Below are positions 3,473 to 63,950 of a stretch of DNA of 64,000 nucleotides, one piece after another (the stretch's first letter is position 1; each line of letters begins with the position of its first letter). Location of the stretch: the IMG/VR virus record IMGVR_UViG_3300028886_003642; one strand, given 5' to 3'. The translations under genes were made by a program, and so were the position numbers. Source of the stretch: a virus (taxonomy: Duplodnaviria; Heunggongvirae; Uroviricota; Caudoviricetes). The notes beneath the pieces are model-generated. The model saw nothing but the letters and a program-made list of their open reading frames with translations, was not told the origin of the DNA and ran no database searches.

Positions 3473-3483
3473 TTACAAAAATA

Positions 3484-10220: not shown

Positions 10221-10225
10221 TTTTT

Positions 10226-10253: not shown

Positions 10254-10274
10254 CTTGCATATTTGTTCTCTAAT

Positions 10275-14693: not shown

Positions 14694-14726
14694 ATAGTAT
14701 AGCACATTTTTAAGTGCTTGTCAAGG
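14694..14726 (-). promoter_or_regulatory. sigma70-type promoter (-35 TTGACA at 14719-14724, 17 bp, -10 TATACT at 14696-14701)
   Basis: Minus-strand reading atccTTGACAagcacttaaaaatgtgcTATACTatg. Confidence 0.55.
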
Positions 14727-28148: not shown

Positions 28149-28191
28149 CTCGTTTCTGTGTATAAATAAAAAAGCTCAATCCATACTATAT

Positions 28192-28224
28192 CTAGTATAG
28201 CATAAATTGAGCCATCTGTCAAGT
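28192..28224 (-). promoter_or_regulatory. sigma70-type promoter (-35 TTGACA at 28217-28222, 17 bp, -10 TATACT at 28194-28199), nested between the arms of a terminator hairpin (GCTCAAT at 28174-28180 / ATTGAGC at 28206-28212)
   Basis: Minus-strand reading gacTTGACAgatggctcaatttatgcTATACTag. On the minus strand the hairpin is followed by TTTTTTATTTAT. Confidence 0.5.
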
Positions 28225-28225
28225 C

Positions 28226-28654: not shown

Positions 28655-28668
28655 TTACCTCCCCTCCA

Positions 28669-28866
28669 TTACTTAAAAATATCATCTACTTCTTCATCTG
28701 TTGCTATATCTGCAAATGGTTCTAAATCCTCTCCATCTCGTATTGCGTGAATGTATGAATATGGAGTTACTATTTGCAGATGATCTAGTGCTTCTCTAAC
28801 AATAATGTACTCATCTTTTACATTTTTATAAACACTCCAACGGTTACGAGGCTCCATTACCACCAC
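28669..28866 (-). CDS. hypothetical acidic protein (65 aa)
   Basis: ORF in track. Confidence 0.3.
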   Translation of the reverse strand: MVVMEPRNRWSVYKNVKDEYIIVREALDHLQIVTPYSYIHAIRDGEDLEPFADIATDEEVDDIFK

Positions 28867-28871
28867 CCTCT

Positions 28872-29444
28872 TTATAAAAACATAGCGTCAATATCATCAT
28901 CACTAGCAATACTAATTTCTCCCATAGCTACATCTACCAGTGTGCTAAAACTGATTTTATAATCCCCATTAGCTATTATATCATACTTATTATTAGCTAT
29001 TACAAAAAGATCTTTTATTTCTATTTCTTTATCTCTTTTCATCTCAGCAATATATACTGCAACACCTATATTTCCTTGCCAATTTGTAAAATCAACGTCA
29101 TTTAATTTACCTAATGGCATTCCTCTTGCAAAATCTCTTAACATCACAAATTCACCATTTAAATAAACATAATAATGTTTAAGGTCATTAGTTAATGCAA
29201 ATCTTACTTCTGCATTTAGTTTATCTGAAATATTTTCTGTTACATTTAGTACATTTTGTCTTAAATACAACTTTCTAGGAAGAATTAAAAAATCATCATG
29301 TATACCTATTGATTTTACTCTATGACCAAAATTATCATCAAAAGTTAAGGTTTTTATTGCTCCTAAATCTTCTAAGGAGTCAACTTCTATTTTTTCATAT
29401 CCTCCACCAATAAGTACATCTTCTATTTCATCTGGCAAAACCAT
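28872..29444 (-). CDS. hypothetical protein (190 aa)
   Basis: ORF after the promoter at 29514-29546. Confidence 0.45.
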   Translation of the reverse strand: MVLPDEIEDVLIGGGYEKIEVDSLEDLGAIKTLTFDDNFGHRVKSIGIHDDFLILPRKLYLRQNVLNVTENISDKLNAEVRFALTNDLKHYYVYLNGEFVMLRDFARGMPLGKLNDVDFTNWQGNIGVAVYIAEMKRDKEIEIKDLFVIANNKYDIIANGDYKISFSTLVDVAMGEISIASDDDIDAMFL

Positions 29445-29513
29445 TATGTTTCACCCCATATATAAATAAAAGCCCAACCAAAAGGTTAGGCTTATTTCCT
29501 GTCCTCTCTAATT

Positions 29514-29546
29514 ATATTATACCATAATTAAAACATTTTGTCAAAT
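29514..29546 (-). promoter_or_regulatory. sigma70-type promoter (-35 TTGACA at 29539-29544, 17 bp, extended -10 TGGTATAAT at 29516-29524)
   Basis: Minus-strand reading aatTTGACAaaatgttttaattaTGGTATAATataatt. Confidence 0.55.
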
Positions 29547-33424: not shown

Positions 33425-33472
33425 GCTTTCTCACCGCCTTTACAAAAAAAAATAAATCCGCAATCTCTACCT

Positions 33473-33505
33473 TTATTATACCACAAAAGGGCTAATTTGT
33501 CAAGT
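33473..33505 (-). promoter_or_regulatory. sigma70-type promoter (-35 TTGACA at 33498-33503, 17 bp, extended -10 TGTGGTATAAT), nested inside a terminator hairpin (AAATCCGC at 33453-33460 / GCGGATTT at 33510-33517)
   Basis: Minus-strand reading ctacTTGACAaattagcccttttGTGGTATAATaaagg. The hairpin is followed by ATTTTTTTTGT on the minus strand. Confidence 0.55.
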
Positions 33506-33527
33506 AGAAAGCGGATTTACTTACTAA

Positions 33528-36500
33528 TTATGTTTCACCATAAAGCTGAGTTTCATACCAATTACTATTTCTATATCTATAGTACCTTCTATTAACACCT
33601 TCAGCCCTAGTAAAATCATTTTGTAATACATATTCTTCTTTTAACTCTATTTCATGAATTACTGCATCATTATCACCATTAGCACCATCTACTCTATATG
33701 CTTTAGTTGAAGGAATATATCTAACACCATCTTGACCTGTAATGCCACTTAAATCTGTAGTAGTACTATCAGCGACTAAAATTAAAGGTGCATCTTCAAA
33801 TGTCATAGTAGAAAATTCTACGTAAGTAGACTCAGGTATTTCAATATGTGTTGCAGTAACAATACTATCAGCATACGTTTTTGCCATTTGATCTACGTCA
33901 TCACCATCTTGTGGATATATAATACCAACAACTCTAGGTACATGATATATTAGATGTTTATCATAATGGTCAAATGAGTATAAATCTTTTTGTTTATTAT
34001 AAGAACCAATTTCCAATTGAACATCACTAACTCTTTGAAGTCTATTCCCCATCTGCACACAAAATTCATTCCAGAATAGTGTAATATCAGTTGGGAACTC
34101 TTTTGTAACATTTCCATCATCATCAGTTACTTCAACAACAGCGTCATATTTAAATTCAAACTCTTTTTCATTACAAGTACATTTAATATAGTATTGTGTA
34201 GTATCTTCTGGTTCAGCATCATTTTCATTATTATGCACATTTATATTATCAGACTGATTAAACTTATTTCTTAGATTATATGTAAAGTTTATATCATGCC
34301 CAAATATAGTACCTGCTGGATAATTATAATTATAAACTGTTTTATCTCCACGCTCAGCAGCAAATTTAAGATTAGCCATGGGAGATGGACATTCACTTCT
34401 GCGTTTAGTGTAAAATGTTACTATATCATCTATATTAAACTGCTCTTCTTCATCTACCGTACCAGACCTAAGTTCATACTGCTCATCTGCAAAATTACCT
34501 TCTGTAGCTACTCTCTTATCATCAACCTGCAATTCATAATCCAAAAAATAAACTTTAGAATATGCTGGATGATCTCTTGGTATAGTATCATATACACCAT
34601 GAATTACATTTGTTAGCGTATAATGACCATTAGGTAATTTAATCATTGTATCATATGTTAGTATCTCACCGTCAATTACCATCATATTTCTATTAGATTT
34701 ATTTGTATATACAGATGGATAATCTAATATTTTTTGACATTTATCATCAAACAAATCTCTTGCTTGAGCACCAATAACTTCTATCTCAAACCCAGTATTA
34801 TCTTCATCATAAATTTCTTTCGTACCATATACTAATTGAGCTACCATTGACCAATCATTAGTTCGTGTTCTTCTAGCATATTCTGTTCCAGTATATCTAT
34901 AATTAACATAATAATCATCATCATTTGTAGGTCTAGCAGCATAAGCATTAACATAAGTATCCAAAGATTTAGTCCATTCATACGGCATTTCCATATACAT
35001 ATAGTACTGGATTGATGACGCATATTTTTTAGGATTAGTCCATTCTGGTACTTCTGCATAAGCATACCTTGTATTTTCAAATCCATATATATCTTCAATT
35101 GCAGTTACCTTTATAGCATTAGCTGTAAGAGTAGCATAATCTATATCTGTAACTCTATATATTTGATTATCTATTCCATATGACAACCAATGTACTATTA
35201 TTGGATCACCAAGACCAATATCATGACCAAACCTATTTGTAGTAAACTCTACTGTAGATAATGGATAACCAGAAGCTAATTGTGAGATTTTTGCTAACCA
35301 ACCAGCGTTCTTAGGTACAGTATAATAAACTCCCTCAACTGAAGACTCTTTATAAGATCTTGTTATAAATCTATTGGCCACATCTTGGTATATTACTGTA
35401 CCATCAACATATTTATTAGAAGCATGAGTAAATGAAACAGTTGTTGCTGAAGATGTTTCTGACCAATCTAATCTTGTAAATTTCATGCTTTCACAATTAC
35501 TTGGGTTAAAAATAGGCAATGTACTTGGGTCATAATCACCACGAATAAGCTTAAATGTAAGTCTACCTGTATACGGATTATCATACATTATACCATTTAT
35601 ATGATTTAATATCTTTTGAATATATGAACCAGCCTGTGCTTCTGATGTAATTAAGCATGATACACCTAGTCTTTCTTCCTCACAAGTTATGCCTAATTGC
35701 AATAAACTCTGTGCATCTATATCTGTTATTCTATCATAATTACATCCCCATAAATCATTTGTAAGAATTGCATAGATTGCCTCTGCTGGGTTCAAATCTT
35801 CATCCAATTTCCCTAAATGCCAAACACCATTATCAAGAAGCGTGTCTAAAGGATCTACTAAAGAAGCTACCTCATCTCTATTTGTTTGAGGATAATTATC
35901 TCTAACTGCATCCGCAGCATCCCTTAACGCTTGGAAAGTTTCTTCTGTTTTCTCATGAGCTTCATCTGCTTCTTGTTTTGCTTTATCATATTCTTCTTGT
36001 GCATCAGTAATTACTTGCTGATCTCCACTACGTTCAGCTTCTTCCAGTCTTTCTCTAGCTCTATCCATTACATCTATTTTTAACTGTTCTGCTTTATAAT
36101 AAGCGTCATATTCTCCTTTAGCTTCCCGCAATTCTTTTGTATAATCTTCCATATAAGTTTGTACTGATTGGTCTTGATTAGATATATATGCTAAAATATT
36201 ATCAACTAGCTCACCTATACGTTTAGAATATAGACCAAATAAATCTGACTTAAATTCTTCATATAACTTTGTTGGATAGTTTACTACCTCAAACCACATT
36301 TCTGGCATAGTTGACTGTTTACCAATATACGCACCATCAACTTTATTTCTATCAGATACTACACAAGTTAAAAACATCGGATATCTTGGAGTCAATCCCC
36401 TCAAATCTTCCTCTATAGTATCTGCTTTCATTTCATTTACCATCCATGAGTCTTTTGGTTGTTCATAAGTACCAAAATAAAACCTTACTTCCCCAATAAA

Positions 36501-39566: not shown

Positions 39567-39609
39567 CTATTTCACCTACCTTTAATATATAATAAAGCCC
39601 CTATTTTCT

Positions 39610-39642
39610 ATATTATAGCATAATAGAGGCTTTTTGTCAAGT
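39610..39642 (-). promoter_or_regulatory. sigma70-type promoter (-35 TTGACA at 39635-39640, 17 bp, -10 TGCTATAAT), flanked by inverted repeat AAAGCCCCTATT / AATAGAGGCTTT
   Basis: Minus-strand reading gaacTTGACAaaaagcctctattaTGCTATAATatag. Confidence 0.55.
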
Positions 39643-39757
39643 TCTTTGTATTTAAATACCAAACTAATAACTCCAGTTCGGCGAAAGCATTTTTTTACTT
39701 TATATTTCTATAAAGATTAGACTATATCTTATCCATGCCTTATATTAAGGTTTAGGT

Positions 39758-40915
39758 TTATTCATATCCTGTTTTATTAACAGTACTTCCATTTATGGAA
39801 TAGTCGTTGACCCATTTTATTGGGTGCTGATTTTCTATTAACATCTGATAAATTTTTATAACTACTTCTAGTTTTATCAGCTTTAAGAAGTTCCAGCAAT
39901 TAAAATAATTATTCATGTACAAATTTCTTTGTAATGCAACCATCTCTAAATAATCGAAGACATCTATCTCGTAATCATCATCATCTACTTCTTCACGATG
40001 TAAGAATAAGAACTTAAACACACCCCAGATCAACCAAGGTTCATAGACTGGTCTGTTATTATGAGTTTCACCCAATCTAATAGTTATATTTAGTCTTGGA
40101 TACATACAATTACTAAGCATAAAATATAATAATGAATATTGTAATGCTATTGCTTTATATGTTCTAGGTAAATGTGTTACGTTAAAAGGCTTAAACGAAT
40201 CATCATATACCTTATTAGTAGTAACCATATATTTATCATTAGCTGTATATTCTGCTATACCTTTTGGCATTGCAGACCTTGGAACATCTTCTTCATATAC
40301 TACTCTCCTAATAGGTATTCTAATATCTACAATATATGTTTCTACAGATGCTATACGTTTTTGCATATCTGTGCTATTCTTATATGCTACCCTATTATCT
40401 GAACCGTACAACTTATCCCCCTTACTAATAATAGGATTCCATATATATGATTCACCATAAAGCTTTTTCTTTAATTTTGCTATGGGGAAGAATCTATTTA
40501 TAAGTGAAACATCAAAATGTATCTCAAATTGATGACTCATTTGTATAGTAAAATCTATATGTAAATCACCAATAGTTTCTATATTATCTCTATGTATATA
40601 AGTATTACCATTCTCATCATATACATCAAATGTTGCTGCTGGATAGTCATAAATATATAACCACCCTTCTTGCCTTGTTAATACTTCTTCTGAATCATCT
40701 ATCTCACCAAAAGGTATTTTTAAAAAGTTCCATCCTTTCATAGTAATAGTATCCCCATACCACGGAGATTTCATAGTTCCTAAATCTGGTTCTGGGTCTA
40801 TTACAAATATACCTTGAAAGTATGGTTTTGCAAAATATTTGTCACTTGTAGTCATCCTCTGTAAAAAATATTTTGGCCCGACAATACTTGCCTTACCTAA
40901 TATATTTTCTGGCAT
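39758..40915 (-). CDS. uncharacterized large tail-module protein (385 aa)
   Basis: Member of the 10-gene block between the tape measure and L/J. No recognisable motif. Confidence 0.5.
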   Translation of the reverse strand: MPENILGKASIVGPKYFLQRMTTSDKYFAKPYFQGIFVIDPEPDLGTMKSPWYGDTITMKGWNFLKIPFGEIDDSEEVLTRQEGWLYIYDYPAATFDVYDENGNTYIHRDNIETIGDLHIDFTIQMSHQFEIHFDVSLINRFFPIAKLKKKLYGESYIWNPIISKGDKLYGSDNRVAYKNSTDMQKRIASVETYIVDIRIPIRRVVYEEDVPRSAMPKGIAEYTANDKYMVTTNKVYDDSFKPFNVTHLPRTYKAIALQYSLLYFMLSNCMYPRLNITIRLGETHNNRPVYEPWLIWGVFKFLFLHREEVDDDDYEIDVFDYLEMVALQRNLYMNNYFNCWNFLKLIKLEVVIKIYQMLIENQHPIKWVNDYSINGSTVNKTGYE

Positions 40916-40925
40916 AGGCTATCAC

Positions 40926-42194
40926 CTACCCGTCAATACCTTTTCTTGTTGTAGTAATATCTCCTATAGTACTATCACTATCATCTTCATTTTGTCTAAT
41001 GCTTATACCATCAAACCCAAATCTTCCTCTACGCATTGACATAGAAAATACCTGACACAAATCATTAGATTTTGGATAGCTCATCTCATAACAGAAACTT
41101 GTCTGCATATTTAACATACATACAAAATATACACCGCTTACTTGACCAGCACCTGCATAATTATTTAATGCATCTGGGTCTACTTGCACAGCCATAAACA
41201 TAGGCATATTTAACGTAATACAATTTAATGTATTTATGTTTCTGCCCCAGTCTAACTTACCTTGAGATTGAATATAGCCATAATGAGGTATCTTACCATT
41301 ACCAGAAGAACCACCATAAGGATCTCTAACTGGCATTGATAATCTTTTTCCAGTTACGTTATCTGTACCACTAGATGCCCATCTAATATATCCTCTGCTT
41401 TCTTTTGGAGCATCGTCTATATCCATTCTTAAAAATGTATTTGATATTCTACCACTACTAAGAACAGGAAGTATATTTGCATCCTTAATTTCATGGAAAG
41501 GGTCATCTGCGTCAGAATTAGCGAATAACTCATAAGCTTGCTTAATAGTACTAGGAACGGCAGAACCACTCATAAAAATTCCTCCTTCCCAATCATCATA
41601 CTTATTAAGCATACCAACTATTAAATGTACTGCTCTATAATCCCAACCATTTGCCTGATCTCCACCAACATTTTCAGCTACTAAACTAAATACTAAAGTA
41701 TCTGTTGGAAGTGTAGTATTATTACAATATAGTGTATATGCATTTTCATTTGTATCTGGATTTTCCTGTTCGGTATATTCATAATTCTCATTTCTATTTA
41801 CTACAGGCATACATACAAATTGTACTTGATTTCCCCTATAATTTAATGGTACTAAATACTGATTATACCATCTTTGCGTTTGAGAATACCCTTCTGATAT
41901 AGTCATTGCTACACCTTGATAGCCTATATCAGTATCTGGTGTTGCTATATCCATTGCAGCGTCATCAGTAGTACCAAATGGACTTACATATTCAAATGAT
42001 CTTAAATGAATAAAATACGTATTTGTTTTATCCATAAATACAAACTTTTTACCATCTACAGAAGACCTATCGTATACATTTACATCATCTTTTAATGCGT
42101 CTACTACTGTAAATCCTCTACTTGTTATATACTCAGCCATTTTTTCAATGACTTGATTGGCTGTTTTTAAATTATTATATGCTACATATGCCAT
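40926..42194 (-). CDS. uncharacterized tail-module protein (422 aa), N-terminal region paralogous to 52948..53859
   Basis: Shared N-terminal pattern (A..I..L...G.TV...(x)n..G..F.....T.YI.L.S.E) with the 303-aa protein. Confidence 0.5.
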   Translation of the reverse strand: MAYVAYNNLKTANQVIEKMAEYITSRGFTVVDALKDDVNVYDRSSVDGKKFVFMDKTNTYFIHLRSFEYVSPFGTTDDAAMDIATPDTDIGYQGVAMTISEGYSQTQRWYNQYLVPLNYRGNQVQFVCMPVVNRNENYEYTEQENPDTNENAYTLYCNNTTLPTDTLVFSLVAENVGGDQANGWDYRAVHLIVGMLNKYDDWEGGIFMSGSAVPSTIKQAYELFANSDADDPFHEIKDANILPVLSSGRISNTFLRMDIDDAPKESRGYIRWASSGTDNVTGKRLSMPVRDPYGGSSGNGKIPHYGYIQSQGKLDWGRNINTLNCITLNMPMFMAVQVDPDALNNYAGAGQVSGVYFVCMLNMQTSFCYEMSYPKSNDLCQVFSMSMRRGRFGFDGISIRQNEDDSDSTIGDITTTRKGIDG

Positions 42195-43886
42195 TTATAT
42201 TATCAACTCCTTATAGTCATCTACTAAAAATAATAGCCCAGTATATCTATTTGAAATACCTATAAATTTTTTACCTAAGTAATTGTACTCGTGCATCCTA
42301 TTATCATCATCATACAGTCTTTGACATGAATATACAAAGTTTAATTTACAATATATAGAATATGTGTTAGTGTCTAATGGCTCTCTCTTAATGTATATAT
42401 GTATAGGGTACATTATAAAATGATTGTTAAGTACATTATTTGTTTGAAAAGGAAATAGCTTAGTAAATACTTTTGGATCTCCTTGTCTTGCCATAGAGAG
42501 AAGTAAAGAATAATTATGTTCATATTCCCCTATATTATCACCATTTGTTAAAGTTGGAAAATGAGGTATACTATAATTATCAAGTTCCCAGTCATCATAA
42601 TTTACACCATCTCCTTCTGCCCCACTAGAATTAAAAGAAGTAATTATAGTAGGAACAAGGATATTTGAAGTCCACCCTAAACCGCCAACCCACCTATCTG
42701 GATCATCTTCTGCTAACTTACCCTTAAACATATAGCTCTGTGCTCGTTTTTCTACATTATTAAAATGCTTAAAATTTCTATATGACCCAAAATTAGGTTT
42801 ATAAGAACTATGCCATAAATTACACACTCTGTCTTTAATATTACTATCTGCATATGCACCAAAAATAACTAAAGGTACTCTCTCTGGTACAAAACTATAT
42901 GGATCTCCTATACGAACTGTATGCCCATAAGAACATAAATATGGGGTTCTATCCCTTTCTTTGTCTCTATCATTCACCTCTAAATGTTCATCCCCTTCTG
43001 GATGACCATTAGCCATCATACTAAGAAAAGCTACCCCATCTGATTTACAAATCAATGCCTCCTCTGGACTCATTAAATCACATCCACCAACCAGCTGAGT
43101 ATCTTTAACTGAAATAAATGAATTTAAACATGTAGTATTTGCTACATAATTTTGATTTTTTAAAAAATAAAAACAAATAGTCTTATTATACAAGCTCATA
43201 GCAAAACTAAAACTATCAACATTGCTACTAATTATATCATCAGCCACTATATCCCACATATGATAAAATGGGTCTAATATTAGTATAGGACTTGATTTTA
43301 TTGTAGCATCTTCATACAAAAGACCATCATATATACTATCAACACCTATACCACTACGCATTGGATGTCTTTGAGTGTATCTAAATTTTGCTCTCTTTGA
43401 AATCTTATTATTAGCATCCAAATTAAATATGCTTAGATCAAAAGCTACACAGATACTTTGCCTCGAACTAAATCCATCATCCGGTCTTAACCCTTTTGTG
43501 TAATCAGACCATGTAATAGCACCAGATTTAGAAACAAATATTAAAATAGGGCATGGCATCCACGAATAAAATATGCAATAAACAGGATAATTTATATCAG
43601 CAAAATGAGATATTTTAAACTCAGAAAAGTCATCTAGATTAAATGCAGAATTAGTACTATTATCAACAACATTAGAATAAAAAATTAGAGGGGTCGTATC
43701 TTTTATATAATCTGGCATATCATTTACCCAAGGAACTGGTGTATTTATATCTTCAGTAGCAGTAAAATCTGTATTTGGAGCTATATTACAAATAAATGTC
43801 TTTATATTTTCCATTGTTATTCTTAATACTTCTGACAACGGACAATTTTTAGGATAATTATTAAATACTTTATACATACTAACCAA
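42195..43886 (-). CDS. uncharacterized tail-module protein (563 aa)
   Basis: ORF that overlaps the upstream gene by 8 nt. Confidence 0.5.
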   Translation of the reverse strand: MVSMYKVFNNYPKNCPLSEVLRITMENIKTFICNIAPNTDFTATEDINTPVPWVNDMPDYIKDTTPLIFYSNVVDNSTNSAFNLDDFSEFKISHFADINYPVYCIFYSWMPCPILIFVSKSGAITWSDYTKGLRPDDGFSSRQSICVAFDLSIFNLDANNKISKRAKFRYTQRHPMRSGIGVDSIYDGLLYEDATIKSSPILILDPFYHMWDIVADDIISSNVDSFSFAMSLYNKTICFYFLKNQNYVANTTCLNSFISVKDTQLVGGCDLMSPEEALICKSDGVAFLSMMANGHPEGDEHLEVNDRDKERDRTPYLCSYGHTVRIGDPYSFVPERVPLVIFGAYADSNIKDRVCNLWHSSYKPNFGSYRNFKHFNNVEKRAQSYMFKGKLAEDDPDRWVGGLGWTSNILVPTIITSFNSSGAEGDGVNYDDWELDNYSIPHFPTLTNGDNIGEYEHNYSLLLSMARQGDPKVFTKLFPFQTNNVLNNHFIMYPIHIYIKREPLDTNTYSIYCKLNFVYSCQRLYDDDNRMHEYNYLGKKFIGISNRYTGLLFLVDDYKELII

Positions 43887-46332
43887 TCCTTATTGCTAAT
43901 TTTTCCATTACATATGGAAATGGATTATGACCTCGTAATGCAGTACTATCATATAAATCAACAACATCACAAGATTCCCACGGTTCATTCAATACCTTAA
44001 ACCTATGTCCAAAAGAAGAATCATAAGCATCATAAACATATAATCTTCCATCCCAACCACACGGAACAATCAAATATTTACTACCATCTTGAGCAACATA
44101 TTCTCCAGATTCTATATATTTATCAAACGTACAAAAAACACATGGTATTGTAGCACACTGACAACTTTCAAAATGATCCTTAGATTTATCGAAGAACACA
44201 GACACTGGTATAAACTGTGTATTACAAATATAACTAGTACCCATGATATGATTAACTCCAGTAATATTATTATACCCATGTGTATTAATAAATATAGTAC
44301 TATTTATTTCCCTAGCGTTATTACTTGTAGGAAATAACATATGATCATTATTATTATATCTATACACATTATTAAGTATAGACGCATAGTCTGGAGGAGG
44401 GCCTGCCGTAGGCCAAGAAACAACTGTAGCATCCTGTATTATACTATATATATTTTTCCATATACCCTCTATAGACAACACTCTAAAATTACTCGTATTT
44501 GCACCGTTAAATTTACACGGAGTCAATAATGTTGCGGGATGTCCCCAACTAACATTATGAAAATCTAAATCATAACTATTACCATGCACATAAGTTTTTG
44601 TTCCTCCTCCTGCTGGAGTATACACATACACATCATTACTTATTCCTAAAGACCCTCCAGCACAATATAAACTATAAGAATAATTTTCTGTTTGTTTATA
44701 CGGAAATCTTCCAAAAGATATTGATTGCCAGTTATCTAGTTGCTGATGATTTCCATCTACCTTAATCGTAATGCTACAATTTTTATCGTCTGACATGGTA
44801 ATCCAACAATCATACAGCATGTGATTAACACCATCAGTATCCTCATAAAAAGAATAATCATTTATGTTATTATCACTTATAACAAACCACGGAGCACCAG
44901 TTCCTGGATAAACTGTTGAATGATAAGGCTCATTTTCTGACCCCGATGATAAGTATCTACGACAAGGCAAAGTATTTATTAAATTTCTACCAGCATAATT
45001 TTCACCACAAGTATCTGTCTGACATAAAAATTCGTAATTAGTATTTGCTTGAAATTGCTCATTTGCCCATAACGTATCAGAATATCCTGTATGAACAATG
45101 ACAACAAATCTTTGGCCAGTATTCATAAATAAATTTGGAGATTGTAACCCAGAACCATATTTATTAACATGATACTGTTCTATATATGGAAGTACACTCC
45201 ATTCTATAACATTTTCACGTTTCTGTGTAGATAACTTATTAAACTCACTAGTGTACCAATCATTATTGTGGTCTAAATGACCAAGACTAAAACCTTTCAT
45301 AAAATCATTATAAGAAGTATTAGTTATCTTATCGCAAATTAATGACACATAATACTTATCTCTATGTACAGGTAGATGCCACTTTTCAATAGCTTTGTCG
45401 CTTATATAATTATATATAAAGTCATAAAATACATCAAAAGTTTCTAGTGCAAAGTAATCACCATCTCTTGCCTCAGTTACCCATCTATCTATATCAATTA
45501 TATAATCATCTGGAACTTTATTATCTATGAAATTTCTATAATCTAAATAAAATGAGCTTTCTTTGTAACTTGGGTCAGTAACAATTACAAGCCTAATACC
45601 CCAAACTCTACATATATTCATTATATCAATAACAGTACTTATTGCGTCATTAAAGTTATCTAAATCAGATATTTCCTTCTCTATGCCTCCTATAAGTATA
45701 TGTGTTGGTAACTGTGATCTATATATATTCACATCTACACTATCATAATCTACACCACCAACAATATTACTAAGTATATTAAATACCTGAGATATATTTG
45801 ATGAAGAAAGTGTGTAATCAAATGTAGGTGTAGTAAAATCACCAAATTTAGTTATAGTCGCATTAGGATAAGATACTGAAACTATATTCTCTAAACTATC
45901 AAATCTTATGCCATCAACTTCGTGATGCCAAGAATTTGCAATATCATCTCCCCACCCCATATCAGCATATGATTCTGGTTCATCTTTAGGACTAACTACA
46001 TAATCAACAAAAATACGAGAATAGTCTGACATTATATGTAAGTTACCACAAATAACAAATCTATATGCTTCAGAATGAACTTCATAGTCACTTAACGGAC
46101 ATTCATATGTAGAACCATAAAAAGTATTTAATCTATTGTCTAATCTTCTCCAACACCTACCATCAGTGTTTCTTGCAACATTTAATACAAAACCACCGTC
46201 TTCAAATATAGAAATCCCACTCTCCCACGCACTAGAATAAGGAAATGCATTAGGCACATAGCATGTTGCATAATAGAAAGCAGAATCAATAGCATCAAAA
46301 TTATCATATGCTGAAAATCTTAAATTATACAA
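43879..46332 (-). CDS. uncharacterized tail-module protein (817 aa), paralog of 51154..52941
   Basis: KYGSGLQSPNLFMNTGQRFVVIVHTGYSDTLW ~ KYGSNPPNIFKNTGELVSVGVHTSYDPFLW. PGTGAPWFVISDNNINDY ~ PTTGCPWFTISSKNIADY. YCAGGSLGISND ~ YCAGGNQALSPD. NTSNFRVLSIEGIWKNIYS ~ NLSNFRIMNGEGTWEDIYS. Confidence 0.55.
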   Translation of the reverse strand: MYNLRFSAYDNFDAIDSAFYYATCYVPNAFPYSSAWESGISIFEDGGFVLNVARNTDGRCWRRLDNRLNTFYGSTYECPLSDYEVHSEAYRFVICGNLHIMSDYSRIFVDYVVSPKDEPESYADMGWGDDIANSWHHEVDGIRFDSLENIVSVSYPNATITKFGDFTTPTFDYTLSSSNISQVFNILSNIVGGVDYDSVDVNIYRSQLPTHILIGGIEKEISDLDNFNDAISTVIDIMNICRVWGIRLVIVTDPSYKESSFYLDYRNFIDNKVPDDYIIDIDRWVTEARDGDYFALETFDVFYDFIYNYISDKAIEKWHLPVHRDKYYVSLICDKITNTSYNDFMKGFSLGHLDHNNDWYTSEFNKLSTQKRENVIEWSVLPYIEQYHVNKYGSGLQSPNLFMNTGQRFVVIVHTGYSDTLWANEQFQANTNYEFLCQTDTCGENYAGRNLINTLPCRRYLSSGSENEPYHSTVYPGTGAPWFVISDNNINDYSFYEDTDGVNHMLYDCWITMSDDKNCSITIKVDGNHQQLDNWQSISFGRFPYKQTENYSYSLYCAGGSLGISNDVYVYTPAGGGTKTYVHGNSYDLDFHNVSWGHPATLLTPCKFNGANTSNFRVLSIEGIWKNIYSIIQDATVVSWPTAGPPPDYASILNNVYRYNNNDHMLFPTSNNAREINSTIFINTHGYNNITGVNHIMGTSYICNTQFIPVSVFFDKSKDHFESCQCATIPCVFCTFDKYIESGEYVAQDGSKYLIVPCGWDGRLYVYDAYDSSFGHRFKVLNEPWESCDVVDLYDSTALRGHNPFPYVMEKLAIRIG

Positions 46333-56584: not shown

Positions 56585-56726
56585 GTAATCATCTCCTAGA
56601 AATCTATTTTAATAACAAACCAAAGAAGTCCATACTAAAATATAGCATAGACTTCTTTGACCAGCTTTCAAAATACCTATAATACTCATATCATATGTAC
56701 TTTGAAAACTTATCTACCTTATACTT

Positions 56727-56759
56727 ATATTATACCACATATTTCTGATTTTGTCAAAT
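56727..56759 (-). promoter_or_regulatory. sigma70-type promoter, repeat copy 3 (TTGACA-17-TGTGGTATAAT)
   Basis: Third copy of the ~45-bp repeat cttatattataccaca..tttt..caaatt(t)tgtcaaatttta. -10 at 56729-56734, -35 at 56752-56757. Confidence 0.55.
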
Positions 56760-56760
56760 T

Positions 56761-56946
56761 TTAAATAAAAGGCTGTTTTCCTTTCTTTTTTGCCTTTACT
56801 GATCTTTGACCTTCATTATATGCGAATTTTTCTATATATTCAACTAAATGTTTAATCTTGTGAAAATTATCATCAAAGCCTGTAAGCTTTTCTAATCTCC
56901 AAATTAATTCATCCCAACATTGCTCTGAACTTTTTAGTTTACTCAT
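56761..56946 (-). CDS. small hypothetical protein (61 aa)
   Basis: ORF driven by repeat copy 2. Confidence 0.4.
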   Translation of the reverse strand: MSKLKSSEQCWDELIWRLEKLTGFDDNFHKIKHLVEYIEKFAYNEGQRSVKAKKKGKQPFI

Positions 56947-56966
56947 CTTCTTTCTACCTTCTACTT

Positions 56967-56999
56967 ATATTATACCACACTTTTTCAAATTTGTCAAAT
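56967..56999 (-). promoter_or_regulatory. sigma70-type promoter, repeat copy 2
   Basis: -10 at 56969-56974 (TGTGGTATAAT on the minus strand), -35 TTGACA at 56992-56997. Confidence 0.55.
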
Positions 57000-57005
57000 T
57001 TTACA

Positions 57006-57158
57006 CATCTTTACCAACAATATATATCTCACCATCATATACTTCAAGATCATCTATGTCAGCAAGAATATAATTATTATTTGCTACTATCTTTAATTTA
57101 AGTTCATCTTCTGGCTCACAAAATGCCAACTTTTCCATTAGTTCTTCTACACTCATCT
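57006..57158 (-). CDS. small acidic protein (~50 aa), not in ORF track
   Basis: Manual translation MSVEELMEKLAFCEPEDELKLKIVANNNYILADIDDLEVYDGEIYIVGKDV with RBS GGTGAAAGAG. Confidence 0.35.
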
Positions 57159-57174
57159 CTTTCACCCTATACTT

Positions 57175-57207
57175 ATATTATACCACATTTTTCAAATTTT
57201 GTCAAAT
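57175..57207 (-). promoter_or_regulatory. sigma70-type promoter, repeat copy 1 (abuts the tape-measure stop codon)
   Basis: -10 at 57177-57182, -35 TTGACA at 57200-57205. Confidence 0.55.
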
Positions 57208-57208
57208 T

Positions 57209-60200
57209 TTAAAATCTACTTGTTACACTAGCATATCTTCTACTAAAGTCTAACATTATTCTTTGACCTTCTGGAGATCTTAATAACTGTTTCATACCTT
57301 CTTGCTCATCACGAACAAGTGCTACACTAATATTAGCTGTATTGCTTATATTATTACTAATATCTTTACCAAAATTACTTATTCCTCTTGCTGTTTGTTC
57401 TTGTGCTAGATCTGATACTAATCCACCTTGAGCATAATGTGGTATTCCAGATTTTATTTTAGTAAAATTACCACTATTAACTGCATTAAGGAAATTAGTA
57501 CCATACTTTTTAACAGAACTTGCTTTAATAACATATTCACCATTTGAAAGCATTGTAGGAATACTATCAGAAGTACTTGTACCTGGTCCACTTATATAGC
57601 CACCTTCAGCAAAACCACCCAATCTAAATGCAATATTTGATAGTGCTTGTGCAGCTGCTTTTGCTTGTATTTCTAATTGCATAAAAGCTGTCTGCAATCC
57701 TGTTGTCATAGTTGTAGCAGTAGTCTGTATTTCTGTAGCAGCTACAGCTACAGTTGTAGATGCTTGTTGCATAGCCTGACCTAACTGCTGAGTATCGGCT
57801 GGTGTAGTATTAACATCTGTAATATTCTGACTTAAATTACTAACATTCTGTGCTGTATCACTTAAAGAAGTAGAAAACGTACTTAAACCAGTATTTGATG
57901 TTTCTTGTAGTTTTTCATTAAACTGCTGTAAGCTACCTTGAGTTATATTTGCGCCATTAAAACTTATTGATTGTTGGCTATTAGAACCAAATTGCGAATT
58001 TGCTAATGCTGGTAACTCATAAGTCTGTTTCTGATACCCAAATGCAGGACTAGTTAATGTTGGCATTGGTGTTCCACTATAGCTTACTGCATTATTTGCT
58101 ACAGACAAACCACCATAACTACTAATAGCTTCTCCTTTAATAATATTTGCAGCATCTCTTAATGCTTGTGCAACACCTTGAGCACCCATCCTAATGTCAG
58201 CTTGTACTTCTGCTGATGTTCTACCAAAATCTGAATTATTTATATGTAAACTTTGAGGATTATCTATCTCATATCCACCAAACCATTTATCCATCATAGA
58301 CTTAACCATTCTCTCAGCAGAAAACTTTTGTATAGTCTTTAAGAAATTAATTGCAAGATTTCTTAAAGCTTCCCCAAGATTTTCTGCCTCGTTTATACCA
58401 TCTGTTAAGAATGTTACTAAACCATCTTCTAAGGCTTGCTTTGCAGTTACTCTTAAATCTCTCAAATAATTGGGGTATTGCTCAGCTATTAGTTTAGCTT
58501 TTTCTCGTGCCTGTGTAGCATCCCAAAGTTGTCGATCAATTATCAACAAAGCATCTGCACTTGCACCAGCTTTTTCAAGACCATCTTTAACTTTAGCTAA
58601 TCTAGAAATCTCAGAGTCCCAAAAATCAGCTTCAGCTTGCCCTTGCCAAGACTTTAATTGTCTTTCTCCATACTCTTTCTGTAATGTAGTATATTTATCA
58701 GAAGCTGTAAAAATGTCTAAAGCATTATCAAAAGGCTTTCTAATTGCTTCTAACCCTGAATTCATCATATCCTTAAAGTTATTCATTACCTTCTTAACTT
58801 CAGACATACTCTGCTGATATAGCTCATTCATACCATGTGCTAAATAAAATTTAGCCTCATTAGTTATCTTAGTAAGATATTTAAATACTCCCCAAATTCC
58901 ACCTTGAGTGCCACCACCATCACCTTTAGTGTTATAAAAATAATTAAAATAATTTTCAAGAACTCCATCGAACTCATCAAAAGAAATTTTGCCAGTACTT
59001 AAATTAAATAAATGACCTTCCCAATCTGACTGTATTTTAGATAAATTATAATCCATAGTTCTTTTAGCTACAGATATTGTAAGATCAGCAACTTTCTTCT
59101 GATAATCAACAGTTATTTCCTGAATATATTTATCCTTTATGTCTCCTTCTAAGCCTTGCACATCAACACTATTAAGCTTTTCTTTATATTCAGATTCTAA
59201 TTTTTTTAACTGAGCATCGATCTTATTTAACTGATAGGATTCTAAGGTTGCTGCTGAGTCTAGAACTTTCTTTCTTGCCTCATTTATTGCTTTTAAATAA
59301 GCAGAAGCAGTTTCACTTGTATTTGCTTGTGACATTCTTATAGGATTAACATTATAACCTCTCTTACCAGAAAAAGATGCTAAGTCACCATAACCAACAA
59401 TACCACTTTCTAAATCAGATATAGGCACAGTTACAACTTTACCCCTACCACTAGAAGCATGAGTAATAGTACCATCACCGTTGTAAATACCAGTATGTCC
59501 TATTTTTTGCCCTTCAACTACACCATAATCACCGCCAAAATACATAGAAACAAAATCTCCACGTTTTGGCTGATAACCAGATCCTTTTAAATGAAACGCT
59601 CCTACATCATTAAATTGTCTAGCTTGTTCATCAGCAGTTCTAACTATTTCAACACCCAATCCCTTGTATACTTCTTGAACAAATTTTGAACAGTCTATAC
59701 CTCTGCTAAGATCATTTCCTAAATAATATGGTGTACCAAGCCATTTATTTATTTCTGAAGTTAAAGCATCTCCTACACCAGAAACTACATTCCTAGCTGT
59801 ATTACTAGCATTAGCTAAATCCTGATTTACATATTTAATATTATCCTTTCTTGCTTGTGCCTGACCAACTTTATCAGCGGGACGTTCCACATATCTAGTC
59901 CACCCTTCTACGGCAGCTTCTATGGTTCTTCCATTATCATTATAATATTTCAATGCTTGAGCAAACGCACCACTTTCTGTAGTCCAAATTTCATGCAATA
60001 AATAAGCACTTTGCGTTAGTATATGATTAATATCACTAAAATTATCTTTAGCAAACTGCTTTAATCCATCCCAACGCTCATTGTGCCACTGAGCAATGCC
60101 AAAAGAAGTACCATTATCTCCAATAGTATTAGTATCTAGATATCTTCCAGACTCACCCATTAAAGATGCAATTATACCTCTAACCATGTTATCCTCAAGT

Positions 60201-63178
60201 CCACCTTGAGTTAATTGTCTATATACTATTTCAGTATTAGACATTCCACTAGTTGTTTGAGCATTTAATAGTAAATTATCCCTTCCCATCTGAGTTGCAA
60301 ATAAATTATCATGCATAGCTCCAACATCTGCAAACTTTTCCGCAGCTGCTTTTGTTATTGCAGCAACTTCTTGCTGTCCTCTAACTGCTTTATTAAGTTC
60401 TCTTGTATACTGACTTATCTCCCTATTTAACTTATGTAGTTCTTTACGCTGATCATCCTCATTTTTAAATGGGGTTTTTTCTATTTCAGCCTTTTCAGCT
60501 AAAGCCTCCTGTAATTTAGCTTCAGCTTCTTCTCTTTCTATTTGTGCTTTTTGAGTATAGTATTCCCTAATAGACATGAATCCTTCATCAAAAGCAATCT
60601 TATTTTTAGCAAGAGTTTCCTTCAAATTAGCTATATGATCTTTTAATTGCTCCTTTAATCCTTGAATATGAGCTTTCATAGCTTTTTGTGCTGCTTGTAT
60701 TGCTTTATTACGAGCTTTTTCATCTTCTTTATCCTGAGCAGTTCCTTTCATTCTTGGAACATCCCTACCTTTAGGAATATCCCTATTTCTCGCTCTATCT
60801 ATCAAATCAATTACTTTTTTAGTTAATTTTCCAGATTCACCCAGATAAGTATCAAATCCATTAGTTTTCTTGTTTCCAGTCCATCCAGTATCTATCGTAT
60901 TATTATACTGACCCTCTACATCAGAAAACGCATAAAAAGCATTTTTTGATTCACTTAAAAATGTCTTTGAAGCTTCAGCATATTCATTAGCCTTAGACTC
61001 ATTACCAAGTTTAGCATTAACCCAACCAAGAAAAGCTTGTGTTAGCCCAATAAACCCTTTGACTAAACCCTCAATCAAACTTACTCCTGATTTCATTACA
61101 GCCCATAACATCTTAAATATCTTTATAACACCTAAAAGTGTACCAATAAGCGTGGTTAATGCACCTATCATATCTTTTATGAAATTAACCATAGTCTCTA
61201 TTGGGTCGCTTCCACCAACAATGGACTGTATCATATTCAACAAAGCATCTGCACATGAAGTAGCATATACAACTATATCTAATAATCCATCAGCCAATTC
61301 TTTTAGCCAATCACTAAGATGAAAATTACCTTGTTCATCAAACTGACCTAACGACTTTGTAATAGTCTGAGCAGTTTCAACAATAAGTGGCCCATACTCA
61401 TCAACTATCGTCATTGCAGCAATGCCCCAAGTCTCTTGCAACTGTTCTATAGCACCAACAGGAGTATTAGCATATTCTTCCATTACCTTAGTATATTCTT
61501 GAAATTTCTTCATCAAATACTCATATAATGCATCAACATTACCCTTAAACTGAGCAAGATCTTGATTAGTAATGCCCAAAATATTTGCTACCTGTGATGT
61601 TCTAGCTGTAATACTACCTTGAGCTAAATCACGAGTTTCTTGTAGTACCTGATTAGGAGCCAATCTACCAGTCTTTGCTACACCAGCTACACCAAAAATA
61701 ACATCTTGGGCTTGTTTTGGAGTCATACCCTTATTTAAAAGCATTGGCAATACGCCTTGCTGTGCTGTAAGAATATCATTTAAGTTCAATACTGTTTTAG
61801 CAGCTTCCTGCATAGCTCTGCTAAATAAATACGCTGATTCAGCAGTAGCTTCTTCATTAGTTACTGCTCTACCATTAACAGTGGCTGAAGTCTTTAATGC
61901 TGCTTTTGTAGTTAGCATAGTTGTATCACGTTGAGCCATTAGTTCAAATCCAGGCTTTAATGCTGTTGCAACTAATTGTGCTATAGATCCAAGTGCCGAA
62001 GCCAAATTATTGATTGCACCTATCAGTAAATTACCCGCAACCAGCATACCGCCAATAGTAGCAGCTGCTATAGATGCTGTACCAGTAAGTTTACTTAAAG
62101 AACCCCCAGCAGCATTACCTTTAGCCAATACATCTGCCAAAGCCTCACCAAATGAACCAAGACCTTTTGAAGATCTACCGAGAAAATGAATAAACTGTGT
62201 AGCATCACTTGAATTATACCAACGATCACCGCCAACAGTTCCACTACTGCCTCCACCTCTAGATCCTCCACCACCAGATCTATTATTATACCTAGTATTA
62301 ACTCTAAGAGTCATCCTATTTATTCTACGTATCTGATTAGTAATAATGGCTAATCTTTTTTCTACAGCAAATAAATCAGACTGGTCTGCTTCAACTTTTA
62401 ATTTTGGTAAATCTTTTGCACCACTAGCTTCTATTTTTATCTTTGAATTTTGCTTAATAGACCTTAAATATAATTCCATATTCTTCAGTTTACCTAAAAT
62501 TGGATTTAGTCCACTTTCTGTAAACTGAATAGAATTGTTATTCTTTAAATTAGCTAATACATTAGATACTTGTCTAACCCTATCTAAAGAATTTTGTACA
62601 CTTTTTACAGTTATACCAAAAGTTATATCACTCTTTAATCCTGCAAGCTTAGACATATCTTTAGTAAATGTATTTATTCCTTTTAAGTCTGCATTATTTT
62701 TTACATTTATTGTAAAACTTACATTCTTAAGGTTATTTATGTCCTTTGATAAACCTGCTAATTGACTTTTAACTTGTGCAGTAGTAGCATTTAAACTTAT
62801 AGTGTGCTTGCCAGTAATAAAGTTTAAATCATTCCTTATTGACTGAAGTTGCGAAGATACTCCTTTTGCATCCAAAGATAAAGTTATTTTAGTAAAATCT
62901 TTAAATGATCTTAATGTACTTAATAATCTATCGGCTTTTGCTTGAGCGTCAGCAGTAGATAGTTTTACTACATTATCTTTATTAAATGTACGAGAAATGA
63001 AATCCCCTAAATTCTGAATAGACATTCTCGCACTTCTAGTTTGTGCTTTTACATCTATAGTTTTATTCTTAAATTCATTAAGCAGATTCTTTAATTCTTG
63101 CATACTTTGCTTTGCTTTATCTGCTTTAAGATTTATCTCACCATCTAACTGTAAAATGGTTTTTTCTTTCCCTGCCAC
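57209..63178 (-). CDS. tail tape measure protein (1989 aa) with embedded lysozyme-like/transglycosylase-like and NlpC/P60 peptidase domains
   Basis: Long coiled-coil N-terminal half. Hydrophobic Gly/Ala-rich segment GTASIAAATIGGMLVAGNLLIGAINNL. NlpC/P60 signature ...GIDCSKFVQEVY...IGHTGIY...THAS. Lysozyme-like ...SLMGESG...FGIAQWHNERW. Strong RBS GGGGGGAGGAG. Preceded by a chaperone gene that has a frameshift site. Confidence 0.8.
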   Translation of the reverse strand: MAGKEKTILQLDGEINLKADKAKQSMQELKNLLNEFKNKTIDVKAQTRSARMSIQNLGDFISRTFNKDNVVKLSTADAQAKADRLLSTLRSFKDFTKITLSLDAKGVSSQLQSIRNDLNFITGKHTISLNATTAQVKSQLAGLSKDINNLKNVSFTINVKNNADLKGINTFTKDMSKLAGLKSDITFGITVKSVQNSLDRVRQVSNVLANLKNNNSIQFTESGLNPILGKLKNMELYLRSIKQNSKIKIEASGAKDLPKLKVEADQSDLFAVEKRLAIITNQIRRINRMTLRVNTRYNNRSGGGGSRGGGSSGTVGGDRWYNSSDATQFIHFLGRSSKGLGSFGEALADVLAKGNAAGGSLSKLTGTASIAAATIGGMLVAGNLLIGAINNLASALGSIAQLVATALKPGFELMAQRDTTMLTTKAALKTSATVNGRAVTNEEATAESAYLFSRAMQEAAKTVLNLNDILTAQQGVLPMLLNKGMTPKQAQDVIFGVAGVAKTGRLAPNQVLQETRDLAQGSITARTSQVANILGITNQDLAQFKGNVDALYEYLMKKFQEYTKVMEEYANTPVGAIEQLQETWGIAAMTIVDEYGPLIVETAQTITKSLGQFDEQGNFHLSDWLKELADGLLDIVVYATSCADALLNMIQSIVGGSDPIETMVNFIKDMIGALTTLIGTLLGVIKIFKMLWAVMKSGVSLIEGLVKGFIGLTQAFLGWVNAKLGNESKANEYAEASKTFLSESKNAFYAFSDVEGQYNNTIDTGWTGNKKTNGFDTYLGESGKLTKKVIDLIDRARNRDIPKGRDVPRMKGTAQDKEDEKARNKAIQAAQKAMKAHIQGLKEQLKDHIANLKETLAKNKIAFDEGFMSIREYYTQKAQIEREEAEAKLQEALAEKAEIEKTPFKNEDDQRKELHKLNREISQYTRELNKAVRGQQEVAAITKAAAEKFADVGAMHDNLFATQMGRDNLLLNAQTTSGMSNTEIVYRQLTQGGLEDNMVRGIIASLMGESGRYLDTNTIGDNGTSFGIAQWHNERWDGLKQFAKDNFSDINHILTQSAYLLHEIWTTESGAFAQALKYYNDNGRTIEAAVEGWTRYVERPADKVGQAQARKDNIKYVNQDLANASNTARNVVSGVGDALTSEINKWLGTPYYLGNDLSRGIDCSKFVQEVYKGLGVEIVRTADEQARQFNDVGAFHLKGSGYQPKRGDFVSMYFGGDYGVVEGQKIGHTGIYNGDGTITHASSGRGKVVTVPISDLESGIVGYGDLASFSGKRGYNVNPIRMSQANTSETASAYLKAINEARKKVLDSAATLESYQLNKIDAQLKKLESEYKEKLNSVDVQGLEGDIKDKYIQEITVDYQKKVADLTISVAKRTMDYNLSKIQSDWEGHLFNLSTGKISFDEFDGVLENYFNYFYNTKGDGGGTQGGIWGVFKYLTKITNEAKFYLAHGMNELYQQSMSEVKKVMNNFKDMMNSGLEAIRKPFDNALDIFTASDKYTTLQKEYGERQLKSWQGQAEADFWDSEISRLAKVKDGLEKAGASADALLIIDRQLWDATQAREKAKLIAEQYPNYLRDLRVTAKQALEDGLVTFLTDGINEAENLGEALRNLAINFLKTIQKFSAERMVKSMMDKWFGGYEIDNPQSLHINNSDFGRTSAEVQADIRMGAQGVAQALRDAANIIKGEAISSYGGLSVANNAVSYSGTPMPTLTSPAFGYQKQTYELPALANSQFGSNSQQSISFNGANITQGSLQQFNEKLQETSNTGLSTFSTSLSDTAQNVSNLSQNITDVNTTPADTQQLGQAMQQASTTVAVAATEIQTTATTMTTGLQTAFMQLEIQAKAAAQALSNIAFRLGGFAEGGYISGPGTSTSDSIPTMLSNGEYVIKASSVKKYGTNFLNAVNSGNFTKIKSGIPHYAQGGLVSDLAQEQTARGISNFGKDISNNISNTANISVALVRDEQEGMKQLLRSPEGQRIMLDFSRRYASVTSRF

Positions 63179-63231
63179 ATCTCCTCCCCCCTATTTATAT
63201 ATAAAAAGCCTCACCATTATATAGGTAAGGC

Positions 63232-63950
63232 TTATTTTCTCATATCTTCAACTATTTTTTGTATTTTCTTTCCAGATCCTCCAAAAGCCATACCTATTCC
63301 TAATCCTACAGCGTCTATAAAATCTGCTGTATGCCTCATGTCTTGTTTAACACATTTTTCGTAAAACAATGTTATCTCTTCTCTCGAATATTCTCTAAGT
63401 ACCTTATTCTTATCGTGTCCGTGTTCTATTAAAACTTGCAGAACTTCATAGATACTTACTTCTTGCTGGTCTTTTTTGGCTTTTCCTCGTCCTTTTTCTC
63501 GACCAGATTTTGAGTCTTCTCCTTTAGCTTCTGCAAGAACTTCTTGAAAAAAGATTTATTCACCTCATAAATCTTAAATAATAGATCAATACCTTCTTCA
63601 GCACTAATAAGCTCTGCCTCGTCATAATCTAAATTAGTAGATTTTACAATAATATTCTGAATTAAATCAGCAGCATCTTCACCAACTAATCCTATAATTT
63701 CTACCATACCAATTAATCTGATAGCATTATCTGAGTTAATATCTCCAGAATTTACTGCAAGTTTACCAATAGCATTAGCAGCTACTTCACTGTTATTTAC
63801 AATAGCAGCTGCTAAACTACTCATTTGACTAGCAAGACGAATTGTATCTAACATTGCTAATTTATGTACAATTACCGTTTTACCATCTACTTTAATTTCC
63901 TGTTCTGACAATAATAGTTCCATTTCAGAAGTATTTTTTTCTTCACTCAT
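63232..63950 (-). CDS. tail assembly chaperone G and its -1 frameshift extension (GT-like fusion)
   Basis: 0-frame product is 164 aa (63456..63950). A slippery heptamer T_TTT_TTC (plus-strand gaaaaaa at 63546-63552) sits near its end. The -1 frame stays open for ~108 codons (FFQEVLAEAKGEDSKSGREKGRGKAKKDQQEV...IQKIVEDMRK) and ends at 63232-63234, just before the TMP RBS. Confidence 0.55.

Follow-up and report, generated by a model that had tools for sequence, protein, structure and literature searches.

Related consensus promoter repeats between the tape-measure gene and a Q-rich gene block in an uncultured tailed phage: a probable moron-like accessory island

The 64,000-nucleotide stretch of DNA analysed here (IMG/VR virus record IMGVR_UViG_3300028886_003642, hereafter the window) belongs to a large tailed phage that is known from metagenomes only, and it raises the question why three near-identical consensus promoter repeats, separated by very small genes, stand directly behind the gene for the tape-measure protein (TMP). 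Our preferred answer, which we consider probable, is that the 3.3 kb from the TMP gene to the next structural operon form a moron-like accessory island built from portable promoter units, which resemble the promoter-early stem-loops (PeSLs) of T4-type phages. In the direction of transcription the order is TMP stop, promoter unit P3, a 51-amino-acid (aa) open reading frame (ORF), P2, a 61-aa ORF, P1, a 144-nucleotide (nt) leader and a Q-rich 134-aa gene. The features at this junction are the following:

57209..63178, minus strand: TMP gene; the 1989-aa protein carries tail-lysozyme and NlpC/P60 domains internally
57161..57213, minus strand: promoter unit P3, the first transcribed; -35 TTGACA 57200-57205, TRTG 57184-57187, -10 TATAAT 57177-57182
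57001..57156, minus strand: ORF51, an acidic orphan of 51 aa (54 aa from an upstream GTG); ATG at 57156, 14 D/E and 4 K
56953..57005, minus strand: promoter unit P2; ORF51 stop TAA 57001-57003, -35 56992-56997, -10 56969-56974
56761..56946, minus strand: ORF61, an orphan of 61 aa; two-helix hairpin with a basic tail
56713..56765, minus strand: promoter unit P1; ORF61 stop TAA 56761-56763, -35 56752-56757, -10 56729-56734
56618..56710, minus strand: structured leader; two adjacent hairpins of ~20 bp, A (56663-56710) and B (56618-56662), then UUUGUUAUU

A repeat search returned a direct repeat of 50 nt in three copies (56716-56765, 56956-57005 and 57164-57213), which are 84-92% identical and spaced by 240 and 208 bp. 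In a gapped alignment the similarity extends over ~53 columns, from a T/TAAAAT tract to ...AAGGTRGA, and ends abruptly at both sides. On the minus (coding) strand each copy consists of the TAA stop of the upstream gene-AAT-TTGACA-17 nt-TGTGG-TATAAT-ATAAGTAnARGGTRGA. All copies match both hexamers at 12/12 positions with a 17-nt spacer and carry TGTG one base upstream of TATAAT, and 0/100 dinucleotide shuffles reached the observed promoter match count, which confirms the near-identical minus-strand consensus promoters that an earlier note on this DNA had described. TRTG is reportedly the '-16' motif of extended -10 elements in Gram-positive promoters, and the three copies are therefore predicted to act as full-consensus Gram-positive sigma-A promoters with a TRTG extended -10. 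The description of these elements as tandem ~45-bp repeats holds for the repetition, but the copies are dispersed direct repeats with ORFs between them and the unit measures ~50-53 nt. Provided that copies are counted in the direction of transcription, it was also right that the first one abuts the TMP stop, as this TAA (57209-57211) is the first element of P3 and lies 3 nt upstream of the -35 (57205).

The three units differ in what follows the promoter. P3, with a predicted start near 57170-57172 and the SD-like (Shine-Dalgarno-like) sequence GGGTGAAAGAG, is conserved as a unit in the related contigs L001-L010, and in P2 the SD-like AAGGTAGAAAGAAG is followed by the ATG of ORF61. P1 has kept the SD-like AAGGTAGA of the repeat without a start codon after it, a vestigial motif that is now useless. 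Across L001-L010 the -35 and -10 hexamers are invariant, except for TACAAT in the third copy of L004/L005.

Are these simply ordinary operon promoters, each selected independently towards the sigma-A consensus, with neither a shared origin nor cassette behaviour? The window gives this idea some ground, because it contains ten further consensus promoters besides the trio. All 13 sites have the same design (TTGACA, 17 nt, TRTG, TATAAT or TATACT), TRTG is present in 13/13, all lie on the coding strand and 12/13 keep entirely to that 9.2% of the window which is not covered by ORFs of >=90 aa. Consensus host-type promoters thus appear to be the general way in which this phage starts its operons. 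At the 47 positions that the consensus does not fix, however, the members of the trio are 66-74% identical, compared with a mean of 40% (standard deviation 7.7%, maximum 57%) for all other promoter pairs, which marks them by sequence as a distinct promoter subfamily. Furthermore, the consensus requires neither the common upstream TAAAAT nor the transcribed ATAAGTA-A-GGT nor the vestigial SD of P1, and the copy number differs between relatives. The identity at unconstrained positions together with the vestigial SD is therefore better explained by shared descent, through duplication or gene conversion, and we regard independent selection as quite improbable.

As the repeats are short and the window has 31% G+C, an assembly artefact or chance similarity in A/T-rich DNA also had to be considered. 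This explanation is effectively refuted: the array is present in at least ten independent assemblies from different samples, among them Logan, ENA and JGI assemblies with lineage-specific substitutions, and the shuffled sequences did not reproduce it. A scan of IMG/VR with the 18-mer TGTGGTATAATATAAGTA matched >117 unrelated contigs and was uninformative because this 18-mer is largely generic consensus.

The two ORFs between the promoters are real genes that evolve like coding sequence. Across ten related contigs, the variable columns of ORF51 distribute as 5/3/17 over the codon positions, with 13 synonymous-only versus 7 amino-acid-changing codons, and those of ORF61 as 2/0/17, with 19/19 variable codons synonymous, the ORF61 figures being biased since the loci were chosen by the exact ORF61 protein. 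The order of ORFs behind the repeats that the earlier note gave is confirmed: the small ORF (50 aa in the note) has 51 aa from the ATG (54 from the GTG), and a 61-aa ORF and the Q-rich genes come next. AlphaFold models predict an N-terminal helix plus four short strands for ORF51 (pLDDT, the predicted local distance difference test, 73) and a helical hairpin for ORF61 (pLDDT 72). A diverged 55-aa homolog of ORF61 occurs in L138/L139 (read directly in L138), and ORF51 forms a single 90% cluster only. Paralogy of the two proteins was considered and rejected on a BLASTP E-value of 3.8 and on the predicted folds, of which one is alpha+beta and the other a helical hairpin. Of the duplicated promoter-plus-gene cassette proposed earlier, the duplication of the promoter/SD unit (~53 nt) thus stands, but not that of the genes, which encode unrelated small proteins. 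We assume that the units arose via duplication or gene conversion of the promoter and not of the genes.

In the model that we favour, the portable unit of ~53 nt comprises an upstream stop in an A/T tract, a predicted full-consensus sigma-A promoter of the host type, a conserved initially transcribed sequence and the SD-like AAGGTRGA. The host RNA polymerase would start independently at ~57170, 56962 and 56722, and as there is no terminator between the units, transcription would add up along the array. ORF51 would accordingly be served by read-through of the late operon and by P3, ORF61 additionally by P2 and the five-gene Q-rich block additionally by P1, whose output would first pass the two-hairpin leader. 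The very high expression of the small proteins that had been suggested before is a prediction from the consensus match and counts among the unsupported points of that suggestion.

Comparison with relatives, here from rumen metagenomes, was one of the checks proposed in the earlier note, and it revealed copy-number variation: 1, 2, 3 or 6 promoter units and 0-3 genes lie between the TMP and Q-rich genes, which fits a recombination-generated expansion or contraction. The arrangements are:

L136, L137: 1 promoter unit, 0 genes between TMP and the Q-rich gene
L146, L147, L149: 2 units, 57-58 bp apart, 0 genes
L138, L139: 3 units, the first two abutting at 42 bp, 1 gene (ORF61 homolog only)
Window, L001, L003, L006, L007, L008, L010: 3 units, 2 genes
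L002, L004, L005, L128: 6 units, 3 genes (an extra 539-aa gene with a promoter pair)

L009 has the arrangement of the last group; its short contig begins within the 539-aa gene, so that 5 promoters are visible. L138 lacks ORF51, and L136, L146, L147 and L149 lack both ORFs. The point at which the 539-aa insertion meets window-type sequence is a TTAA that coincides exactly with the upstream edge of P3, and the single unit of L136 could be a P3 x P1 recombinant. L007/L008 (770-810) and L010 (925-965) carry after P3 a segment of 37 nt that is absent from the window; it would form a 5'-terminal hairpin, TATAGGCTGAAA...TTTCAGCCTATA, with a C-G to G-U change in the stem between lineages, and also provides a stronger SD for ORF51. 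Taken together, these alignments show that the junction is clearly plastic, with the promoter unit as the recurring boundary, and it is probably a hot spot for the gain and loss of both promoter units and ORFans in relatives. The multiplicity of promoters as such also seems to be maintained here. A search with the TMP C-terminus found, beyond a 92-kb relative, only distant phages, all without the promoter array. At a second promoter-bounded cassette of the window (28222-29544) the relatives are identical, so that it offers no test of shuffling.

As an observation in its own right, promoter pairs 42-58 bp apart without a gene between them were found at L138 4654-4740, L146 3838-3930 and L004 5390-5480, directly after the TMP stop or the 539-aa gene.

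The insertion junction at a repeat edge, together with the A/T-rich and intergenic nature of the direct repeats, could also be taken as a sign that the repeats have a role outside transcription, for instance as iterons of a replication origin, in packaging or in site-specific recombination of the DNA, and that the promoter likeness is incidental. Yet -35, 17-nt spacing, TRTG and -10 are exactly kept in the copies and in all 13 sites, which are co-oriented and stand upstream of an SD/start, while iterons would not be expected to lie 208-240 bp apart and to have genes between them, and no replication or packaging genes are adjacent. A function of this kind is therefore very improbable in our view.

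Downstream of the array the following features complete the putative island:

53983..56584, minus strand: five-gene block, conserved as a unit, with predicted transcription from P1
56180-56584, minus strand: Q-rich protein, 134 aa
55953-56183, minus strand: Q/M-rich protein, 76 aa
54947-55801, minus strand: N/Q-rich protein with a transmembrane segment, 284 aa
54903-54924, minus strand: terminator-like hairpin within the block
54432-54872, minus strand: BclA_C-like protein, 146 aa
53983-54429, minus strand: DUF7841 protein, 148 aa
53934..53976, minus strand: intrinsic terminator closing the island, 16-bp stem plus U-run; -27.4 kcal/mol, z -6.1
53880..53908, minus strand: next consensus promoter, right after the terminator; predicted restart into virion structural genes

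The 303-aa protein encoded after the last promoter matches the structural protein family PHROG_687 and PDB entry 8rk3, a 'virion structural protein' (1.3e-7). In L140/L142/L144 the block follows the major capsid gene and a UCP028589 protein, without a preceding consensus promoter, and part of it is found in an early region of Clostridium phage XP41-N3 (L145), beside an antirepressor in C. perfringens phages. Judged from these positions, the block is a relocatable module. Because it is conserved but variable in position and is combined with promoters and a terminator, the 3.3 kb from the TMP stop to 53934 appear to behave as an accessory island. This island breaks the usual siphovirus gene order, which PMC6316719 gives as TMP followed by the distal tail. 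A weak GerD match and the BclA_C resemblance are a hint that the block encodes spore-surface-like proteins. Insertions into the block were seen as well: in L006 an IscB gene lies between its 76-aa and 274-aa genes, and in L004 and L005 a TnpB truncates the DUF7841 gene.

The leader between P1 and the Q-rich gene is structured. From P1 to the Q-rich start codon the minimum free energy is -46.3 kcal/mol (z -7.55), and across 41 stem pairs in 6 distinct relatives all substitutions keep the pairing, with 0 pairs broken and 1 fully compensatory change. In more distant relatives this place is taken by a hairpin with another sequence, which has a clear T-run in L138 and L146. No Rfam family reached the gathering threshold, and a permissive search gave only chance-level miRNA/HIV matches (E 0.6-1). 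A 26-aa ORF within the leader was considered as a third small gene and rejected, since in relatives an indel in a loop puts it out of frame and the hairpins still pair.

From its position and fold the leader could be an attenuator/terminator, an RNase III site, a 5' stabiliser or an antitermination RNA, and we assume that it probably attenuates, processes or stabilises the RNA from P1. A rival to simple constitutive promoters is a regulated switch formed by the array and its leader, in which the strong promoters would fire constantly and the polymerase would be halted at the leader hairpin(s) except when it is made terminator-resistant, either by a phage factor or by the leader RNA, similar to lambda Q/PR'-tR' or HK022 put; alternatively, the conserved non-consensus bases could be a repressor operator. 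Such a switch would fit the pair of long neighbouring hairpins, whose structure is constrained, and the U-rich tract behind them; it would also fit the different-sequence hairpins that relatives carry downstream of their last promoter, some with a clear T-run, and promoters 29544 and 10306 of the window likewise precede a hairpin and a T-run. On the other hand, the U-tract in the window is interrupted (UUUGUUAUU), A-U-rich 20-bp stems fit an RNase III site or a 5' stabiliser equally well, and neither number nor sequence of the hairpins is conserved beyond close relatives. Furthermore, neither an antiterminator nor a repressor candidate was identified, and the leader lacks an Rfam match. A switch therefore seems rather unlikely, and we prefer the additive array with a leader that acts on the P1 transcript.

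Several points weigh against the accessory-island reading and temper it. Activity and strength of the three promoter units are predictions from sequence. Full-consensus promoters can be limited at promoter escape, so that very strong output need not follow. Most other promoter units of this genome contain a stem-loop, but the three copies do not, and they fold no better than shuffles (z -0.8, +0.9 and -0.5). For ORF51 and ORF61 searches returned no Pfam, PHROG or extra-lineage homolog and no significant Foldseek match in PDB or BFVD. Homologous recombination between promoters is a candidate mechanism against which two details speak: the 539-aa indel is bounded by a 4-bp microhomology and not by two homologous promoter copies, and no simple crossover between such copies can lead from the state of the window to that of L138 with its two abutting promoters. 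More generally, the mapped junctions show microhomology or abutting promoters and no clean crossovers between promoter copies.

The other promoters of the window help to place the trio among known systems. Four of them, at 33440-33530, 28160-28225, 39590-39645 and 3400-3475 (all minus strand), are composite promoter/terminator units, in which a hairpin with a T-run behind it encloses or overlaps the promoter. Promoter 33503 lies within the loop of a long hairpin that is followed by T9, an 18-bp stem followed by T6 overlaps the -10 of promoter 28222, and promoters 39640 and 3454 are overlapped by a hairpin. At such units upstream transcripts would terminate, and transcripts from the embedded promoter, which carry the 3' arm only, would escape. 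Two further minus-strand promoters, at 29460-29545 and 10225-10306, have the transcribed sequence ATAATTAGAGA in common, with a hairpin and T-run ~25-30 nt on and before the next gene; ATAATTAGAGA is also found after the last promoter in L138 and L146. At 14719-14724 (minus strand), the TGA stop of an upstream 188-aa ORF is embedded in the -35 (T-TGA-CA) of promoter 14724.

PeSLs of T4-type myoviruses (Arbiol et al., 2010, PMC2839356; Comeau et al., 2014, PMC4122927) combine the upstream stop, set in an A/T tract, with a promoter of sigma-70 consensus, a stem-loop of variable position and the SD plus start of the next gene, which is preferentially an ORFan (PMC2839356); they are repeated many times per genome and tied to indels between close relatives (PMC2839356; PMC4122927). 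The order TAA-AAT-TTGACA...TATAAT...AAGGTAGAAAGAAG-ATG in our units follows the same plan, P1 alone being without a start codon. As in PeSLs, the units stand upstream of orphans (ORF51 and ORF61), relatives show indels at the junction, and units 33503, 28222, 39640 and 3454 overlap or lie inside stem-loop terminators, like PeSL subclasses. The stem-loop itself is missing from the trio, in contrast to P3 of L007/L008/L010 and to the leader after P1. The phage differs from T4 in its gene content (1989-aa TMP gene, chaperone, lambda-J-like tip genes) and in its host, which TRTG suggests to be of Gram-positive type. Moreover, the array is located in the tail module and not in a hyperplastic early region as in T4-type phages, and recombination between units, with mini-circles, is described for PeSLs; here the single unit of L136 could reflect such an event, but the one mapped indel shows a 4-bp microhomology and L138 keeps two abutting promoters. 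Since the trio has no stem-loop and the phage is not T4-like, the units seem PeSL-like in operation without being members of the PeSLs.

The complete island is best compared with morons (Juhala et al., 2000; Hendrix et al., 2000; Cumby et al., 2012), following the definition given in PMC6316719. Predicted promoters and the terminator at 53934-53976 surround genes that have been added between conserved structural genes, the small genes are of unknown function and patchy in distribution, and the Q-rich block is found elsewhere in other phages. In its predicted layout the island thus corresponds to the structural definition of a moron. Classic morons, by contrast, are single units of temperate phages that are expressed from the prophage, whereas here three units follow one another with no terminator in between, the phage uses this promoter genome-wide, and neither lysogeny nor a host benefit is evident.

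Small early genes with strong host-type promoters of their own are familiar from the host-takeover module of SPO1 and the terminal-repeat genes of Kayvirus, and tandem early promoters from T7 (A1/A2/A3) and T5. The SPO1 cluster is mentioned in PMC6873191 and the Kayvirus transcriptome in PMC7698491. Close and co-oriented consensus sigma-A/sigma-70 promoters as well as very small, often acidic orphan proteins are common to these systems and the array, but the known early genes lie at the genome end that enters first and the array directly after the TMP gene. The repeated consensus promoters are of a kind already known from other phages and do not constitute a new class of mechanism.

With regard to the phage itself, the GC skew of the window is negative throughout and nearly all long ORFs are on the minus strand. 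The window encodes a tail assembly chaperone, tail assembly and lambda-J-like tip proteins and CBM5/12-rich fibre proteins, and in addition a SNF2 helicase, an anaerobic ribonucleotide reductase, DnaB-like and DnaC-like proteins and insertions of IscB and TnpB. No T4-like genes and no integrase or repressor were seen among the window ORFs scanned. A megablast of the region found no close relative among deposited phages, and no prophage copy was found in representative bacterial genomes; many assemblies from Logan, ENA and JGI, several labelled as rumen studies, contain segments that are identical to it or nearly so, in contigs of up to 92-126 kb. The TMP contains the Pfam domains Phage_lysozyme2 (1.6e-13) and NLPC_P60 (6.8e-12), its C-terminus matches PHROG tape-measure families, and the tail assembly chaperone gene lies upstream of it. 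Just ahead of the TMP start codon, in the gap to the chaperone gene (63206-63233, minus strand), a G+C-rich hairpin of 10 bp carries TATATAAT in its loop and precedes a T-run.

Beyond the island, ~14 kb of large genes (303 to 817 aa; 39758-53859, minus strand) extend up to the recognisable tail assembly/tip genes, and none of them has a PHROG match except the first, the PHROG structural protein that resembles PDB 8rk3. The IscB locus of the window (19132-20643, minus strand) consists of a HEARO (IscB omega) RNA at 20418-20643 (125 bits, E 2e-25), directly upstream of the IscB gene (19132-20394; 420 aa, RRXRR+HNH), and lies within the tail-fibre/helicase region. The TnpB gene (10844-11962, minus strand; HTH_OrfB_IS605 / OrfB_IS605 / Cas12f1-like TNB) adjoins promoter 10306 and the NrdD gene.

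Should the units prove active, they would offer a small and portable part for expression in rumen or clostridial hosts, in which a full-consensus Gram-positive promoter comes with its natural SD. The two orphan miniproteins, one of them very acidic, would then be strongly promoted and thus candidates for host-takeover or anti-defence factors, and the relatives with 1, 2, 3 or 6 units would provide a natural series for studying ORFan gain within an otherwise rigid tail module. The composite promoter/terminator design known from T4-type phages would extend to an unrelated lineage of uncultured rumen phages. It is possible, although we would not expect it on balance and propose it tentatively, that the ~53-nt unit is a mobile PeSL-type cassette of Gram-positive long-tailed phages that multiplies at the TMP junction, with ORFans captured or lost between its copies. 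In addition, the conserved double hairpin could then be an attenuator or an antitermination RNA of a kind not described before, through which a heavily promoted accessory block is gated. If the cassette reading is true, then together with the units of this window whose promoter lies inside a terminator it would mean that PeSL-style modular shuffling is a general phage strategy and not a peculiarity of the T4 family.

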